DNA from: Candidatus Bathyarchaeota archaeon
GTDB taxonomy: Archaea > Thermoproteota > Bathyarchaeia > 40CM-2-53-6
NCBI GenBank assembly: GCA_963833125.1
Contig: CAWHWX010000012.1
Location: 70,403-134,402, forward strand
Length of the DNA: 64,000 nucleotides
Direction: 5' to 3'
In this document: one piece after another, positions 16,501 to 54,816 of the stretch
Numbering within the stretch: the first letter of the stretch is position 1
How the letters are laid out: every line of letters starts with the position of its first letter
Position numbers and translations under genes: made by a program
Notes under the pieces: model-generated
Seen by the model: the letters and a program-made list of their open reading frames with translations, nothing else
Told to the model about the DNA's origin: nothing
Database searches by the model: none

Positions 16501-18156
16501 TTGGGGTCTTCAGGGCGATTGCTAGCGATTATTGCCTTATCCATCATGTTCGCCGCTCTCCATGTATCCTACGCATTTGCTGACAACAGCTACACAGTTA
16601 CTATCACAGTTCAGGGTTTACCGTCTTCCCTTTCAACGAAAGTCTACGTTGATGGGAGTTATAATGGAACACTGAGCGGTGGGAGCTCAGACACGTTAAC
16701 GCTTTCAATAAATGACAACCCGCATGCCATCTTGGTTGATTCTTATGTGCAAGGGACCGGAAATGGGACACGATATTACGAGAATGATACAGTGTGGGGT
16801 ATCAGCTCACCAGGCAGCCATATGTTCACTTACGTCGCTCAATATTTTCTGTCCGTGGAAACCGCCTTTAGCTCAGCTACAGGCCAATCGTGGTACAACG
16901 CAGGTTCGACTGCTCAGGCCGTGCTTAACGATCAACAAATTGTCGAGGGGCAAGGAACGCGAAACATATTCACAGGTTGGTCTGGCGACGCGACAGGGAC
17001 GCAATTGACTTCGAATGCAATAATTATGGACGGACCAAAGGTCGCAACCGCGAATTGGAAAACCCAGTTTTACTTAACCATTGAATCTAACCCAGCGAAC
17101 GTCACTAGCTTGACAGGTTCTGGGTGGTATGATTCGGGCGTAGACGCTAACTTTTCTGCTGTTATGGTAGCGTCTGGGACATCGAATACGCGCTTGGAGT
17201 TCGATCATTGGAGCGGTGAATACACAGGGCAGCAACCTTCGGGGATGGTGTTGATGGATCGTCCAAAAATTGTCAGTGCCAATTATCTTGTTCAATACCT
17301 TCTGACCGTTATGTACTCCTCACCGAGCGTTTCATCCTCATACAACGAGACTCACGCAGGTTGGTACGCTGCGAATTCTAGCGTGCAACTCGGGCCCGCA
17401 CCATCAATTATCAATTTGAGTACCGTGGAGCGGTTGCGATTTATCGGTTGGTCTGACAACGGTTCTGTATCGAAGAATCTATCGTACTCTGTTTTGGTAG
17501 TTGGGCCACTAAACGTAACTCTCTCCTACACGACGCAATACTATGTTGACGTACGCTCTACATACGGAACGGCTTCCGGTTCGGGTTGGTACGATCGAGG
17601 GACAACCGCAACGATTACCTCCCCAACTACTTCAGGCACCTGGCCCGTTTCGTATGCGCTGACCGGGTGGAGCGTTGACCCGCCCACCGGAACTCTGAAC
17701 AGTACAGAGAATTCGTGGATGTTAACCGTCAATGGGCCATACGTAGTACAGGCAGAATGGGGAGTAGATTACGTCCCACTGATCCTGCTCTTTGGCGGGA
17801 GCGCCGTCGCGTTTGCTGCTGTGGGAGTTACTGCGGTGGTAGTTCACAGGAGGAGTAAAGTTACCGGCAGATCTACTGCTCCTCGCCCGCAAAAAACCGG
17901 CCAGGCTATGTTAGGGTCGCTGGTAGTTTGCAACAGTTGCGGTAACAATGTGCCGAAGGGCGCGGAGTTCTGCGAGAAATGCGGAGCCCCGATCGCGCCA
18001 CTCATCGAACCTTCAACGGAGAATAAGGTATACGACTACATCGTAAAACACGAGGGTATAATTTCCTTGAGCGAAGCATCAGCAGATCTTGCGATACCTG
18101 TTGAGCAGCTAAAGGAAATAACTGAGCGTTTGAAGAGAGAGGGCCGTTTAAGTTAG
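16501..18156 (+). CDS. membrane protein: extracellular InlB-B-repeat-like domains, one TM, then cytoplasmic zinc ribbon + wHTH
   Basis: Signal anchor, then four or more repeats ending F/L-x-GWSGD/HWSGE/GWSDN/GWSVD. TM is LILLFGGSAVAFAAVGVTAVVV, followed by CNSCGNNVPKGAEFCEKCG and YDYIVKHEGIISLSEASADL. Confidence 0.65.
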   Translation: MGSSGRLLAIIALSIMFAALHVSYAFADNSYTVTITVQGLPSSLSTKVYVDGSYNGTLSGGSSDTLTLSINDNPHAILVDSYVQGTGNGTRYYENDTVWGISSPGSHMFTYVAQYFLSVETAFSSATGQSWYNAGSTAQAVLNDQQIVEGQGTRNIFTGWSGDATGTQLTSNAIIMDGPKVATANWKTQFYLTIESNPANVTSLTGSGWYDSGVDANFSAVMVASGTSNTRLEFDHWSGEYTGQQPSGMVLMDRPKIVSANYLVQYLLTVMYSSPSVSSSYNETHAGWYAANSSVQLGPAPSIINLSTVERLRFIGWSDNGSVSKNLSYSVLVVGPLNVTLSYTTQYYVDVRSTYGTASGSGWYDRGTTATITSPTTSGTWPVSYALTGWSVDPPTGTLNSTENSWMLTVNGPYVVQAEWGVDYVPLILLFGGSAVAFAAVGVTAVVVHRRSKVTGRSTAPRPQKTGQAMLGSLVVCNSCGNNVPKGAEFCEKCGAPIAPLIEPSTENKVYDYIVKHEGIISLSEASADLAIPVEQLKEITERLKREGRLS

Positions 18157-18593
18157 AAGAACGGATTCATGCCGTGTTCTGGTTGCTGGTACGTCGCCGG
18201 GTACTGTTGGTATTGGTACGGTTGGTACTGCTGTTGGTACTGCTGGGACTGCGCACTGAACTTCGGAGCTAGGCTCCAATAGCATTCCATGCAGAAGCTT
18301 AGAACTCCGTATTGCTTGTTGCAACCTGCACAAATCGACCTGCCGCACCGCGAACAAACAAATGCAGATGGTAGGTCATGGTGGTAGTAGCAGCTGCCCG
18401 GAGTTTGGATCTGTCTGGGAGTGTACATTGGAGGGGCTCGTGGGGTTGGAACGGTCTGGCCAGTTAATGGGGATTTCACTTCAACTTTGACTGGGGGAAA
18501 TCTTGAAAGTGCAGTGCCGCAACTGAAACAGAATCGTGCGTCCTCGGCGTTTGGTCTGCCGCATGATTGACAGGGAATCATATTCCGAACCAC
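18153..18593 (-). CDS. zinc-ribbon + B-box-like zinc-finger protein with Q/Y/P-rich tail
   Basis: CQSCGRPNAEDARFCFSCG, then C-x2-H-x8-C-x2-C-x4-C-x2-C-x9-C-x2-C (CYYHHDLPSAFVCSRCGRSICAGCNKQYGVLSFCMECY). Paralog of 22824-23666. The ATG alternative start is at 18581. Confidence 0.65.
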   Translation of the reverse strand: MVRNMIPCQSCGRPNAEDARFCFSCGTALSRFPPVKVEVKSPLTGQTVPTPRAPPMYTPRQIQTPGSCYYHHDLPSAFVCSRCGRSICAGCNKQYGVLSFCMECYWSLAPKFSAQSQQYQQQYQPYQYQQYPATYQQPEHGMNPFF

Positions 18594-20894: not shown

Positions 20895-22433
20895 CTACCT
20901 TACTGTAAGCTCGACAGTTAGGGCGTGTACGAGCCCGCCTCCAACTGCCTCTATCGTGATAGGGTAGGTCCCTCCCTTTGTAAAGGCTGGTATTGTTATT
21001 TGGATTGTTATTGTAGTCGTTCCGGGGCCTCCAGGTAGAACAGTCGGGTTGCTTGTCAAGGTATACTTTGCTCCTTGAGGGAGGTTCAGCAAGGTTATGT
21101 TCACAGGGTCTACGAACCCTTTTTGGAGAGTTAACCTAAGATTAAGTGTCGCCTTTGAACCGGTCTGTACTGTGACACTGGTTGGCGAGATTTGCAGTGA
21201 GAAATCGGCTACCGTTATGTTAAGTACTGTTTGTCTGGTTACATACGGTGATTGAGAGGGTAGGTAGTCGGCAATCAGAGCTATTGGATAGGTGCCGTTA
21301 GGGGTAGTCGAGTCTGCGGTCACATTCAAGCTCACGGTTGTTCCTGTAGGAGCAGGGTTTGTCGAGAATGTGATCGTTAAGCCGCTGGGGTTTCCGTTGG
21401 CCGAGAGCTGGACTTGTTGTGCGAACTCATTGATTGACACTATCTGGATCTTTGTGACTGCATACCTCGTTCTGTACACTGTGAGCGAGCTGGTTTGTGG
21501 TAGGATGTTGAAATCCGCAATGACGATGTGGTATGTGTTCGTGTTGACTTGCTTGCCTGTAGAATCTGATGCTCTGATGTAGTAGGTGATGTTTCCGGTC
21601 ACCTGATTACTTGGGATGACGTAGCTGAATTCTCCGGTCCCAATCGAATTCATGGGGACTTGTGTGGTTGGGCCCTCGGTTGCTGGGCCATAAACCAAGG
21701 TTACGTTATGCGCAGGACCAGTTGTGTTGGCAGTAATCGTAATTGGTGTTCCAATGGTCCCTACCGAGACGGGGTTATGAATGATGGCTACCGACGATTG
21801 CGGGGATGTCTTGTAACTATAGATTAGGCCTCCAAATACTGCCAGCAACACAACCAGAACAACCAAGACCATGGCCAGCGCTGCACGCTTTGTCAGGACT
21901 TGTCGTGCAGGTGGTCGTCGTCTGACTTCTACAGTCGGCGTGGGCGCTACAACCGTAGCTGTCGTTTGACGCGGTGGGGTGGCGTCCTTTGGATCAGAGT
22001 AAACTATTATGTTCGCTTCGGGGATCCGAATGGCTTTGTCAGTTCCTGGGATCACCCTGAAGTATCCGACTTCTCCGTTTCTTGAATCAACCACCAAGCC
22101 TGTAATCAATGCTGAGAATTGCTGTAACTTTTTTTGAGTTGAAATGTCCGTCTCGGAAAAGAATAATCCATCCCTAGTGTGTGAGTGGTACCATCCTACG
22201 ATGTTGCCTTTGAGGCGTCCAGAAACGAGTTGATCGGCTATGATTGCTATGGAGCCGGGCGGTAGTGTGGCGCGATGAGGTTCGGATGAGAATTCATGAG
22301 TGGTTGAGTCTTCGATGATTATTGTGTCGTCTTGGAGTTTGCCGAGTAGTAGCCCAATAATCTCGGTTTCGGTGTCCCGTGCAGCTTGGACAATCCTGTC
22401 CTTGACAGGTTTCGAGATGCTGACGTAGGACAT
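20895..22433 (-). CDS. JAMM/MPN+ (Rpn11-like) metalloprotease fused to a TM helix and extracytoplasmic Ig-like repeats
   Basis: EIIGLLLGK...GWYHSHTRDGLFFSETD (E, HxH-x7-S-x2-D). TM is AALAMVLVVLVVLLAVFGGLIY, followed by ~300 aa of beta-rich T/V/N repeats. Confidence 0.85.
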   Translation of the reverse strand: MSYVSISKPVKDRIVQAARDTETEIIGLLLGKLQDDTIIIEDSTTHEFSSEPHRATLPPGSIAIIADQLVSGRLKGNIVGWYHSHTRDGLFFSETDISTQKKLQQFSALITGLVVDSRNGEVGYFRVIPGTDKAIRIPEANIIVYSDPKDATPPRQTTATVVAPTPTVEVRRRPPARQVLTKRAALAMVLVVLVVLLAVFGGLIYSYKTSPQSSVAIIHNPVSVGTIGTPITITANTTGPAHNVTLVYGPATEGPTTQVPMNSIGTGEFSYVIPSNQVTGNITYYIRASDSTGKQVNTNTYHIVIADFNILPQTSSLTVYRTRYAVTKIQIVSINEFAQQVQLSANGNPSGLTITFSTNPAPTGTTVSLNVTADSTTPNGTYPIALIADYLPSQSPYVTRQTVLNITVADFSLQISPTSVTVQTGSKATLNLRLTLQKGFVDPVNITLLNLPQGAKYTLTSNPTVLPGGPGTTTITIQITIPAFTKGGTYPITIEAVGGGLVHALTVELTVR

Positions 22434-22823
22434 GAGTTTGTTTCCCTTTACTTTCTTATCTTATAGCTTGATTGGATGGCCTAATCTTTCGACATAGGAT
22501 GATATGGATTACGCGGTTTCCTGGCGTCCATCTGGGCATTGTATAGAGTGAAGCACAAGATGGGGAGCTGCAGTCTAGCGTTGTGAAGCATGGTTCAAAG
22601 CGAACAGATGTTATTGGGCCCGGGTTAATGGAACAACAGAATCATGGATTAGGGACAGCTTGTGGATGTTTGAAACTATCCAGCAGTTCTAACAATCTTT
22701 TCGGACTGAAGCTCACTAGTCAGCTTTAGGGCTCGCTGGTCCCCACTGGAGACTGAGCGTCCCGGAAGTTTACAGGGAAGAAGTGAAAGATAAGAAAAAA
22801 AAATTTGGGGGTGCCCTACGCTT

Positions 22824-23666
22824 CTATCGTCCAAGCATGCCGAGTATTCCGCCCAGCACACCTAAGACGAAGCCGGCCACAAAGCCTCCACCGATTATGA
22901 GGCTTAGCACTGCCATCGGGAAGACGACGATGCTTCCGATTGTTCCGTAGCCAAGCAGCATCAGTATTGACCCGATTACCAGTATTAGCCCTATGATTAC
23001 GCCGATTGCGAATGATAGGCTAGCAGGGCCGAGTGCTGGCAACCAGAAGAATACTCCGACCCACATCGCGTAGAACCCAGGCGCAAGCAAAGCTGCTGCG
23101 TTGAGGATTACAAGTATCCCAGCGATTACTGAGAGAATGAATCCCCATAGTGATCTGGGTGACGAGGGGGCGTACATTGGCGGTGGTGGATACACTGGGT
23201 AGGCAGCTGCTGGTGGAGCCATCGGTGGTGGACCGAATGCTGGTCCAGCCATAGGTGGAGCCATCATAGGTGGCGCTGCCATAGGCGGTTGGCTATAGGA
23301 TTGAGCCATTGGCTGTTGGGGCGGGCTATAGGCGGCTTGTGCTGGTTGTTGTGCTACCATTGGAACGACTCCTGCGTAACATTGCGGGCACAGGACGAGA
23401 TCCATGTATGCTTTTGAGTCATCGCAACAAATCGACCTTCCACAGCGGTTGCAGACGTATACTGCTGGGAGGTTGGGGTGATAATAGCATTGTCCTGGTG
23501 CGGGCACACGAATAGGTCCGCCTTGGCTGACTGGTGTTACTACGCGGACGGATGGGACTGGTTTGAGTGAGGGGACCGCGCTGCCTGCGAGAGATGCTCC
23601 ACAGCTTGAACAGAATGATGCGTCATCACGATTGTTGTAGCCGCATGATGGGCATTTCTTGACCAT
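22824..23666 (-). CDS. zinc-ribbon + B-box-like zinc finger + P/M/A-rich linker + multi-TM domain protein
   Basis: CPSCGYNNRDDASFCSSCG and CYYHPNLPAVYVCNRCGRSICCDDSKAYMDLVLCPQCY, then a low-complexity PPMAAPPMM stretch and about four TM helices. Confidence 0.7.
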   Translation of the reverse strand: MVKKCPSCGYNNRDDASFCSSCGASLAGSAVPSLKPVPSVRVVTPVSQGGPIRVPAPGQCYYHPNLPAVYVCNRCGRSICCDDSKAYMDLVLCPQCYAGVVPMVAQQPAQAAYSPPQQPMAQSYSQPPMAAPPMMAPPMAGPAFGPPPMAPPAAAYPVYPPPPMYAPSSPRSLWGFILSVIAGILVILNAAALLAPGFYAMWVGVFFWLPALGPASLSFAIGVIIGLILVIGSILMLLGYGTIGSIVVFPMAVLSLIIGGGFVAGFVLGVLGGILGMLGR

Positions 23667-31338: not shown

Positions 31339-31450
31339 TGGTGCCGGGGGCGGGGTTCGAACCCGCGGCTTCTGGGCCCACTGCTTTCCAGATTATGAGT
31401 TTCGTCCCACTAAGCCTGACTGGCGCTCTACCAGGCTGAGCCACCCCGGC
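31339..31450 (-). tRNA. tRNA(CAU), elongator Met or Ile2, with two non-canonical introns and encoded CCA
   Basis: The reverse complement reads GCCGGGG TG GCTC AGCCTGGTA GAGC G CCAG[19 nt]A CTCATAA TCTGG [21 nt in the variable region where ~5 is expected, i.e. a ~16-nt insert] GCGGG TTCGAAC CCCGC CCCCGGC A CCA. Confidence 0.8.
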
Positions 31451-54715: not shown

Positions 54716-54816
54716 TGGTGGGGCCGGCCGGATTTGAACCGGCGGCTTCGCGGTTGCCTCGGAGCAACTCACGCGGGCCCAAGCCGCGTATCATAACCAT
54801 GCTAGACTACGGCCCC
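54716..54816 (-). tRNA. tRNA-Pro(UGG) with canonical-position intron and encoded CCA
   Basis: The reverse complement reads GGGGCCG TA GTCT..TGAT A CGCGG CTTGGG[~23 nt]A CCGCG AAGCC GCCGG TTCAAAT CCGGC CGGCCCC A CCA. Confidence 0.85.

Follow-up and report, generated by a model that had tools for sequence, protein, structure and literature searches.

Zinc-ribbon and B-box-like proteins as putative E3s or adaptors of a Bathyarchaeial ubiquitin-type operon

The 64 kb window analysed here (the whole stretch of DNA taken from contig CAWHWX010000012.1, Candidatus Bathyarchaeia) carries a ubiquitin-type conjugation operon on its minus strand, for which open reading frame (ORF) calls and Pfam matches give the order ZnA – JAB – Ub – E2 – E1 – ZnB. 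Here Ub, E2 and E1 denote the ubiquitin-like modifier and its conjugating and activating enzymes, JAB is a putative deubiquitinase, and ZnA and ZnB are the two zinc proteins at either end of the operon with which this report is concerned. As judged from gene order in related loci, ZnA and ZnB are fixed, dedicated parts of the Bathyarchaeial ubiquitin-type conjugation module. The chances are about even that they serve as E3s (ubiquitin ligases) or adaptors of this module, with a B-box-like domain docking the ubiquitin-charged E2 (E2~Ub). By analogy with the archaeal operon of Caldarchaeales, we infer that ZnB would be the soluble and ZnA the membrane-resident candidate E3 or adaptor, in a non-orthologous replacement of the RING E3, and the arrangement as a whole reads as a variant archaeal ubiquitin operon with a predicted prokaryotic B-box pair in place of that RING protein.

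The preliminary description of this DNA held that the two genes are paralogs with a common N-terminal layout. This is borne out by a BLASTP comparison, which gives 43/103 identities (42%, E = 7e-22) in a stretch made up of zinc ribbon, linker and second Cys/His domain, both ORFs being recovered exactly where they had been placed; the paralogous part comprises the first ~105 residues. The ribbon has the spacing C-x2-C-x10-C-x2-C in both proteins (C8-x2-C11-x10-C22-x2-C25 in ZnB, C5 to C22 in ZnA). About 40 residues past it lies a second domain with eight ligands, C-x2-H-x8-C-x2-C-x4-C-x2-(C/D)-x9-C-x2-C, which in ZnB runs C68-x2-H71-x8-C80-x2-C83-x4-C88-x2-C91-x9-C101-x2-C104 and in ZnA begins at C60 and has Asp as ligand 6. 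Across an alignment of 86 homologs the zinc ligands are invariant except ligand 6, which the ZnB family has as Cys and the ZnA family as Asp; G66, Y70, L74, R82, G84, R85, Y95 and L98 are invariant as well, and the extra Cys of the window's ZnA ('ICCDD') is unconserved, with Arg in the other homologs. A regular-expression scan that took in every ORF of 30 amino acids (aa) or more in the window, the scope of every ORF scan reported below, found the eight-ligand layout in ZnA and ZnB only, and, with hundreds of homologs conserving it, the pattern lies far beyond chance.

The ribbon part of this layout scores above the cut-offs of two Pfam hidden Markov models (HMMs): Zn_Ribbon_1 (PF13240, cut-off 25) gives 34.1 bits for ZnA and 27.1 bits for ZnB, and DZR (PF12773, cut-off 27.3) gives 28.7 and 29.7 bits, respectively. 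In a PDB profile search with a narrow profile, the solved sequence closest to the ZnA ribbon was the N-terminal ribbon of ArnA, at a non-significant E of 0.0058. Beyond the paralogous part, ZnA continues with a P/A/M-rich stretch (residues 101–168; 24 P, 15 A and 8 M of 70) and a hydrophobic region (residues 169–280) with about four transmembrane (TM) helices, whereas ZnB has no TM domain and ends in a Q/Y/P-rich tail (residues 109–146), so that composition and hydropathy agree with the tails originally assigned to the two proteins, a P/M/A linker plus about four TM helices in one and a Q/Y/P low-complexity sequence in the other. The C-terminus of ZnB is RSLF in most homologs and NPFF in the window, and this aromatic end aligns with the RSLWGF that stands just before the first TM helix of ZnA. 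ZnB may have been derived from a ZnA-like gene after loss of the TM region. In the linker, V37 is invariant and K36, V39 and P42 are conserved in at least 90% of the 86 homologs, and the motif V-[KR]-V-x-V is retained in the divergent loci L119 and L121. This linker (PPVKVEVKSP in ZnB, KPVPSVRVVTPV at residues ~34–46 of ZnA) resembles a SUMO-interaction-type beta-strand motif with a conserved Lys and is predicted to be disordered.

The evidence for membership of the ubiquitin module comes from a metagenome scan with the family alignment, which yielded 79 loci. Wherever the flank suffices, the order ZnA – JAB – Ub – E2 – E1 – ZnB recurs with a surface protein gene convergent to it, in more than 40 loci altogether. 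E1 lies directly upstream of 50/51 small ZnB-type genes that have at least 400 nucleotides (nt) of upstream sequence, and JAB lies directly downstream of 21/24 TM-type genes that have at least 600 nt downstream. When loci were instead found from E2s of 63–66% identity, a zinc ribbon plus B-box gene stood directly after E1 in 4/4, in one of which it had been missed by the pipeline's gene calling. The arrangement persists down to 32–44% identity, the E1 and ZnB genes overlap or are at most 13 nt apart in divergent lineages, and those homologs that carry NCBI names belong to Candidatus Bathyarchaeia archaeon. The worry voiced at the outset, that the family might show no conserved linkage to E1 and E2, is thus removed for the operon-linked subfamily (50/51, 21/24 and 4/4), although the superfamily around it is, in the two contexts examined, not ubiquitin-specific.

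On profile evidence, the second domain belongs to the RING-like binuclear treble clefs, within their prokaryotic B-box branch, an assignment that follows from its zf-B_box matches, from the 542-protein family to which it belongs, from the register of its ligands with those of TRIM28 and from the lack of a RING HMM match. zf-B_box (PF00643) is the top Pfam family for 28/28 orthologous domains (E <= 10; best 6.4e-6), and the matches cover only profile positions 3–30 of 42. The gathering cut-off of this family is 24.1 bits; two of three further orthologs scored singly exceed it (26.7 and 24.8 bits), and ZnB (16.2 bits at full length, 18.6 bits for the domain only) and ZnA (13.5 bits) fall below it. 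A profile search of 1.84 billion representatives retrieved 542 proteins at E <= 1e-3. In a sample of 66 wider relatives, made up of 65 of these matches and ZnB, zf-B_box is matched at E <= 0.01 by 49/66 (best 1.9e-10); in most of the 65, several TM helices come after the domain, and the wider family shares the core C-x2-H-P-x3-A-x3-C-x2-C-G-x3-C-x2-C-x9-10-C-P-x-C. A diversified profile (A5) placed ligands 1–6 in register, with identical spacing, with the B-box2 of TRIM28 (2yvr, E = 0.0014) and aligned ligands 1–6 with MID1 (2jun, E = 0.0017), while ligands 3–8 aligned with RING fingers, RNF4 among them (E about 1e-3); PDB sequence searches with the narrow profiles A1 and A2 gave nothing significant. 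The terminal pair typical of B-boxes, H-x(2-4)-H, is absent, and ZnA and ZnB have C-x2-C 9 residues after ligand 6 in its place. The B-box likeness first noticed in the spacing therefore stands for the family, through the 28/28 matches and the TRIM28 register of ligands 1–6, and falls short of the cut-off for the window's own two proteins.

An AlphaFold2 model of ZnB built on the 86-sequence alignment shows a zinc ribbon with a predicted local distance difference test (pLDDT) score of 86–90 and a second domain with a pLDDT of 91–93 over residues 70–110, the latter consisting of a hairpin (93–100) and a helix that starts at C101-x2-C104, with the linker and the tail disordered. A domain-only model is weaker, with a pLDDT of 68.8 for the region that scores 91–93 in the full-length model. 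Foldseek gave its top partial matches to FYVE-type Rab-effector fingers, to LIM domains and to the uS14 ribbon (E >= 0.39). The single-site C4 motifs of uS14 and TraR align to ligands 3, 4, 7 and 8, which is the cross-brace pairing, and this alignment, together with the homology to B-boxes, lends indirect support to a candidate cross-brace with sites 1,2,5,6 and 3,4,7,8.

The RING protein with which ZnB invites comparison is srfp, the small RING finger protein of the Candidatus Caldiarchaeum subterraneum operon (Nunoura 2011, PMC3082918; Hennell James 2017, PMC5654768), a validated RING E3 that was shown in PMC5654768 to be required for E1/E2-dependent ubiquitylation. A search with the E2 returned close Bathyarchaeial E2s only and none from Caldiarchaeum; the Caldarchaeales loci were retrieved with a CsRpn11 fragment taken from the PDB alignment. 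In locus L002, E1 is followed by the gene of the published srfp, whose I30, W58 and R69 are those given in PMC5654768. The slot after E1 holds srfp in 11 Caldarchaeales loci, a twelfth locus, L004, ending within E1, and in the order Ub-E2-E1-X the ZnB slot is the srfp slot. ZnB is best regarded as an analog of srfp and not as its ortholog, because srfp is a clear zf-RING_2 protein (39.6 bits) and ZnB is not. Orthology to srfp, or to RING proteins in general, was considered and rejected: RING HMMs are unmatched while srfp matches strongly, and a phmmer search with srfp finds no protein in the Bathyarchaeial loci. An hhalign comparison of the B-box with the Caldarchaeal RING profile places ligands 3–8 in register, with weak statistics (probability 26%, E = 7e-4), and pairs Y95 with W58 and Y105 with the linchpin R69.

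Several features point to the E2. Y70 and Y95 correspond to the srfp E2-contact sites I30 and W58, the former by its place within the ligand 1–2 pair and the latter by standing 3 residues after ligand 6; both are invariant in the operon-linked subfamily (86 sequences), and these positions are Tyr in only 6/28 distant B-box/TM relatives. The E2 itself, aligned with CsE2 and with human UBE2D2 as reference, keeps HPN, the catalytic Cys, the L4 loop 'YPLKPP' and the L7 loop 'WDP', L4 and L7 being the loops that E2s use for RING contact. No other RING-like ORF was found in the window, and the spacer at 22434–22823 contains neither a Cys-rich ORF nor an Rfam match, in agreement with the preliminary description, which had noted the lack of a RING gene and of a small Cys-rich ORF in that spacer.

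On these grounds a working scheme can be outlined. E1 would activate Ub, which already ends in GG, and transfer it to the UBC-type E2; the B-box of ZnB in the cytosol, or of membrane-anchored ZnA, would then dock E2~Ub in the manner of the RING of Caldiarchaeum srfp, with the zinc ribbon, the V-K-V-x-V linker and the tails contacting substrates, Ub or the membrane, and the membrane-tethered JAB enzyme would remove the modifier. The fuller proposal, that soluble and membrane-embedded B-box proteins fill the E3 role instead of RING proteins as parts of a membrane-coupled module together with JAB and the surface protein, is put forward tentatively, with somewhat more doubt than belief. Such a membrane-coupled B-box ubiquitylation module could possibly relay signals from outside the cell.

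A number of observations weigh against an E2-docking B-box. The linchpin Arg/Lys after the last Cys (R69 of srfp) is replaced by Tyr/Phe in the ZnA and ZnB families, and eukaryotic B-boxes are mostly assembly modules and not E2 binders. RING HMMs are unmatched (zf_RING-like E = 0.011, Prok-RING_1 0.012, zf-RING_5 0.13; RING-family E values for two individual family members are 0.02 and 0.28), and the B-box scores of the window's own ZnA and ZnB are sub-threshold. Foldseek searches of PDB with the full-length and the domain-only models returned nothing below E = 0.39 and no RING or B-box, and the predicted helix follows ligand 8 and does not lie between ligands 6 and 7. The linkage has exceptions (L112, L108, L114 and L115), with a few ZnA-type genes unlinked, and distant B-box/TM relatives occur in non-Ub contexts (two examined, L123 and L126). 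Lastly, for prokaryotic B-box/TM proteins a role in membrane-protein folding or in proteolysis has been predicted (PMC4506424, citing Burroughs 2011).

These points bear unequally on the alternatives. It is rather unlikely, though as the main rival well worth weighing, that ZnA and ZnB are non-catalytic accessories of the same ubiquitin system, be it Ub receptors or adaptors, its preferred substrates or acceptors, or scaffolds by which E1, E2 or JAB is tethered to the membrane, with the B-box acting as an oligomerisation module as in TRIM proteins and the ribbon (of RanBP/NZF spacing) or the V-K-V-x-V linker binding Ub. Tight synteny shows that the proteins belong to the system and says nothing on their role, and such an accessory function would suit a ribbon that resembles RanBP2/Nup153-type fingers (Foldseek probability 0.75–0.8, root-mean-square deviation ~1 Å over 25 residues; Pfam Zn_ribbon_RanBP E = 0.02) and that recurs as the same type on the cytoplasmic tail of the surface protein, as well as a linker that is conserved, disordered and Lys-containing. 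It would also fit the missing linchpin residue, the fact that eukaryotic B-boxes are largely structural and the occurrence of the wider family outside ubiquitin contexts. However, it would leave the operon with no E3, though the Caldarchaeales slot holds one, it does not account for invariant, subfamily-specific aromatics at the RING E2-contact positions, and the NZF Ub-binding 'TF' dipeptide is missing from the ribbon. An E3 or adaptor role with a B-box docking E2~Ub is the reading that we retain.

The fold of the second domain might also be other than proposed. That it consists of two consecutive small zinc ribbons (ligands 1–4 and 5–8), as in generic DZR-type multi-ribbon proteins, is improbable: Pfam DZR does span ZnB residues 8–85, the 8- and 9-residue spacers fit mini-ribbons, and the uS14 ribbon and LIM domains, whose sites are sequential, are among the Foldseek matches, but the B-box HMM matches are consistent, ligands 1–6 are in register with a solved B-box2, ligands 3, 4, 7 and 8 match uS14 and TraR as one site, and the domain is predicted as a single compact unit with a pLDDT above 90. 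It is very improbable that ZnA and ZnB are ordinary prokaryotic B-box/TM proteins of membrane proteostasis or signalling whose adjacency to the Ub genes is inherited synteny, with no functional coupling. The distant members in L123 and L126, the view that prokaryotic B-boxes are unrelated to Ub (PMC4506424) and the three ZnA-type genes that lack a JAB neighbour would agree with this. Yet the arrangement is kept to 32–44% identity and across E2s of 63–66% identity, E1 and ZnB overlap or are at most 13 nt apart in some divergent lineages, and ZnB lacks a TM domain altogether. Thus, the candidate E3 or adaptor pair with a RING-like, B-box-type domain remains our preferred description of ZnA and ZnB.

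The remaining genes of the operon and its surroundings are listed in Table 1. The JAB protein has its JAB domain at residues 1–120, a TM helix at ~185–207 and then a large Ig-like ectodomain, and in the PDB this JAB domain best matches C. subterraneum Rpn11 (E = 1.2e-11). The Ub ends in GG with the stop codon directly after it, and residues 10–67 of E1 form an N-terminal ubiquitin-like (Ubl) domain (Pfam ubiquitin, 28.8 bits). The 551-aa surface protein is laid out as a signal/TM segment, an ectodomain with InlB-B repeats, a TM helix at 425–449, a cytoplasmic zinc ribbon of the ZnA/ZnB type and a short helical tail; its gene converges on the ZnB gene with a 4-nt overlap at the 3' ends and is a syntenic partner in nearly all loci. 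For none of ZnA, ZnB, the surface protein and the E2 was a curated NCBIfam family found. As far as predicted topology goes, the putative ligase, the deubiquitinase and the surface protein are all anchored in the membrane, which hints at ubiquitylation at the archaeal membrane.

Table 1. Positions of the operon genes, their domains and associated features. Coordinates refer to the window unless a locus is named.
Feature	Coordinates	Strand	Layout or basis
ZnA, 280 aa	22824..23666	(−)	Zinc ribbon, predicted prokaryotic B-box, P/A/M linker, ~4 TM helices; upstream of JAB gene
ZnA zinc ribbon (KKCPSCGYNNRDDASFCSSCGASL)	23589..23660	(−)	Pfam
ZnA B-box-like domain, ligand 6 = Asp	23367..23495	(−)	Alignment, Pfam
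ZnA P/A/M-rich linker	23163..23366	(−)	Composition
ZnA hydrophobic C-terminal region, about four TM helices, conserved RSLWGF at start	22827..23162	(−)	Hydropathy, alignment
JAB/Rpn11-like protein, 512 aa, membrane-anchored putative deubiquitinase	20895..22433	(−)	Pfam JAB and Prok-JAB
Ubiquitin-like modifier, 80 aa	20597..20839	(−)	Pfam ubiquitin, 37.4 bits; PDB ubiquitin matches
E2, UBC fold, 197 aa	19991..20584	(−)	Pfam UQ_con, 59.8 bits
E1, ThiF adenylation domain, 416 aa	18741..19991	(−)	Pfam ThiF, 169 bits
ZnB, 146 aa, soluble	18153..18593	(−)	Zinc ribbon, predicted prokaryotic B-box, Q/Y/P tail; immediately downstream of E1
ZnB zinc ribbon	18507..18578	(−)	Pfam
ZnB linker motif PPVKVEVKSP (V-[KR]-V-x-V)	18468..18497	(−)	Alignment; low pLDDT
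ZnB B-box-like putative binuclear domain	18270..18398	(−)	Alignment, Pfam
ZnB Q/Y/P-rich tail, aromatic C-terminus	18156..18269	(−)	Composition, alignment
Surface protein, 551 aa	16501..18156	(+)	Pfam Flg_new_2 and Zn_Ribbon_1; topology
Second RING-H2 protein of Caldarchaeales	L002 5724-6524	(−)	zf-RING_2, 42.8 bits; equivalents in L003, L005-L009, L011-L013

The spacer between ZnA and JAB is 390 nt long in the window compared with about 40–55 nt in most relatives, and the ZnA stop codon is followed by nine consecutive T; given this T run and the long spacer, ZnA may be transcribed separately. In L119 (5541-6707) the gene in the JAB slot encodes a TM helix and an ectodomain without a JAB domain, and in the close relative L001 (6589-7843, on a contig of 212 kb) E1 is split into two ORFs, for which a frameshift, a pseudogene or an assembly error are possible. 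Among the distant B-box/TM relatives, those of L126 (183-3731) form a tandem array of four paralogs, and in L123 (5046-6612), from a bacterial metagenome-assembled genome, the B-box/TM gene stands directly after an ECF (extracytoplasmic function) sigma-70 factor and a 121-aa protein, an anti-sigma-like context. Cys-rich ORFs of 55–59 aa occur beside JAB-family genes in L019 (7664-7831, uncultured archaeon) and L025 (6242-6421, Promethearchaeota), with a motif such as CSNCGENEEFDEIYSCEKCGNMICDVCAIQCDKCKENYCDAC. Elsewhere in the window, tRNA matches lie at 54719-54816 (−) and 31342-31450 (−); the genes are probably intron-containing, as is common in archaea, because the matches are 98 and 109 nt long.

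A literature search found no paper that describes these proteins or treats a Bathyarchaeial ubiquitin operon in detail, and Bathyarchaeota and MCG are both absent from the supplement of PMC5654768. The beginnings of eukaryotic ubiquitylation are best modelled by archaeal E1/E2/RING operons, in which a RING protein is the only E3 tested so far. A B-box in the E3 slot would therefore widen the set of ancestral E3-like modules and give an archaeal precedent for the association of B-boxes with ubiquitin in TRIM proteins; if the proposal is true, that link would be older than eukaryotes, and prokaryotic B-boxes would not all be unrelated to ubiquitin. For biochemistry, ZnA and ZnB offer a small and tractable pair, one soluble and one membrane-bound.

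Among known systems, FYVE-type Rab-effector fingers (Rim2 2a20, melanophilin 2zet, rabphilin 1zbd) gave the best Foldseek matches, though non-significant ones, and share with the ZnB domain the core C-x-R-C-G-x3-C-x2-C and a helix that starts from the last C-x2-C. The phosphoinositide motifs WxxD, RRHHCR and RVC of FYVE domains are absent in ZnA and ZnB, and a FYVE identity was rejected on these motifs, on the weak Foldseek likeness and on Pfam FYVE (PF01363), which matches 3/28 domains at E >= 0.73. The B-box2 domains of TRIM proteins (TRIM28/TIF1-beta 2yvr, MID1 2jun) have ligands 1–6 at equal spacing and, like ZnA and ZnB, are tied to ubiquitin pathways. However, their last pair is H-x2-4-H after 3–6 residues, whereas that of ZnA and ZnB is C-x2-C after 9; unlike TRIM proteins, ZnA and ZnB contain neither a RING nor a coiled coil, and the E-values of the comparison are marginal (~1e-3).

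A prokaryotic B-box radiation was described earlier and thought to be unrelated to ubiquitin (Burroughs, Iyer & Aravind 2011, as summarised in PMC4506424). Its core motif is the same, and its usual multi-TM fusion is the architecture of ZnA. The ZnA/ZnB subfamily differs from it in lying almost always inside an E1/E2/Ub/JAB operon and in having its own invariant Y70, L74, Y95 and L98 and an aromatic residue at 105.

The closest parallel is the Caldiarchaeum operon, which, like the Bathyarchaeial one, has the order Ub-E2-E1-X plus an adjacent Rpn11/JAB gene. The spacing of srfp, C-x2-C-x11-C-x2-C-x4-H-x2-C-x10-C-x2-C (PMC3082918), and that of ZnB, C-x2-H-x8-C-x2-C-x4-C-x2-C-x9-C-x2-C, are nearly alike, and the I30 and W58 positions of srfp carry a hydrophobic or aromatic residue in ZnA and ZnB too. 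We note that ZnA and ZnB differ from srfp in the additional zinc ribbon at their N-terminus and in the lack of the linchpin Arg, and that, unlike in the Caldiarchaeum operon, the Bathyarchaeial JAB protein has a membrane anchor and an ectodomain, the Ub lacks a propeptide and E1 carries an N-terminal Ubl domain. Two genes downstream of srfp, Caldarchaeales loci also encode a conserved second RING-H2 protein, of ~230 aa and with four TM helices at its N-terminus, which is present in 10/11 loci with enough flank and of which the passages of PMC3082918 and PMC5654768 make no mention. In both lineages, then, the operon comes with one soluble and one membrane-anchored zinc protein, RING proteins in Caldarchaeales and B-box proteins in Bathyarchaeia, and the TM helices of the membrane paralog are N-terminal in the former and C-terminal, in ZnA, in the latter.

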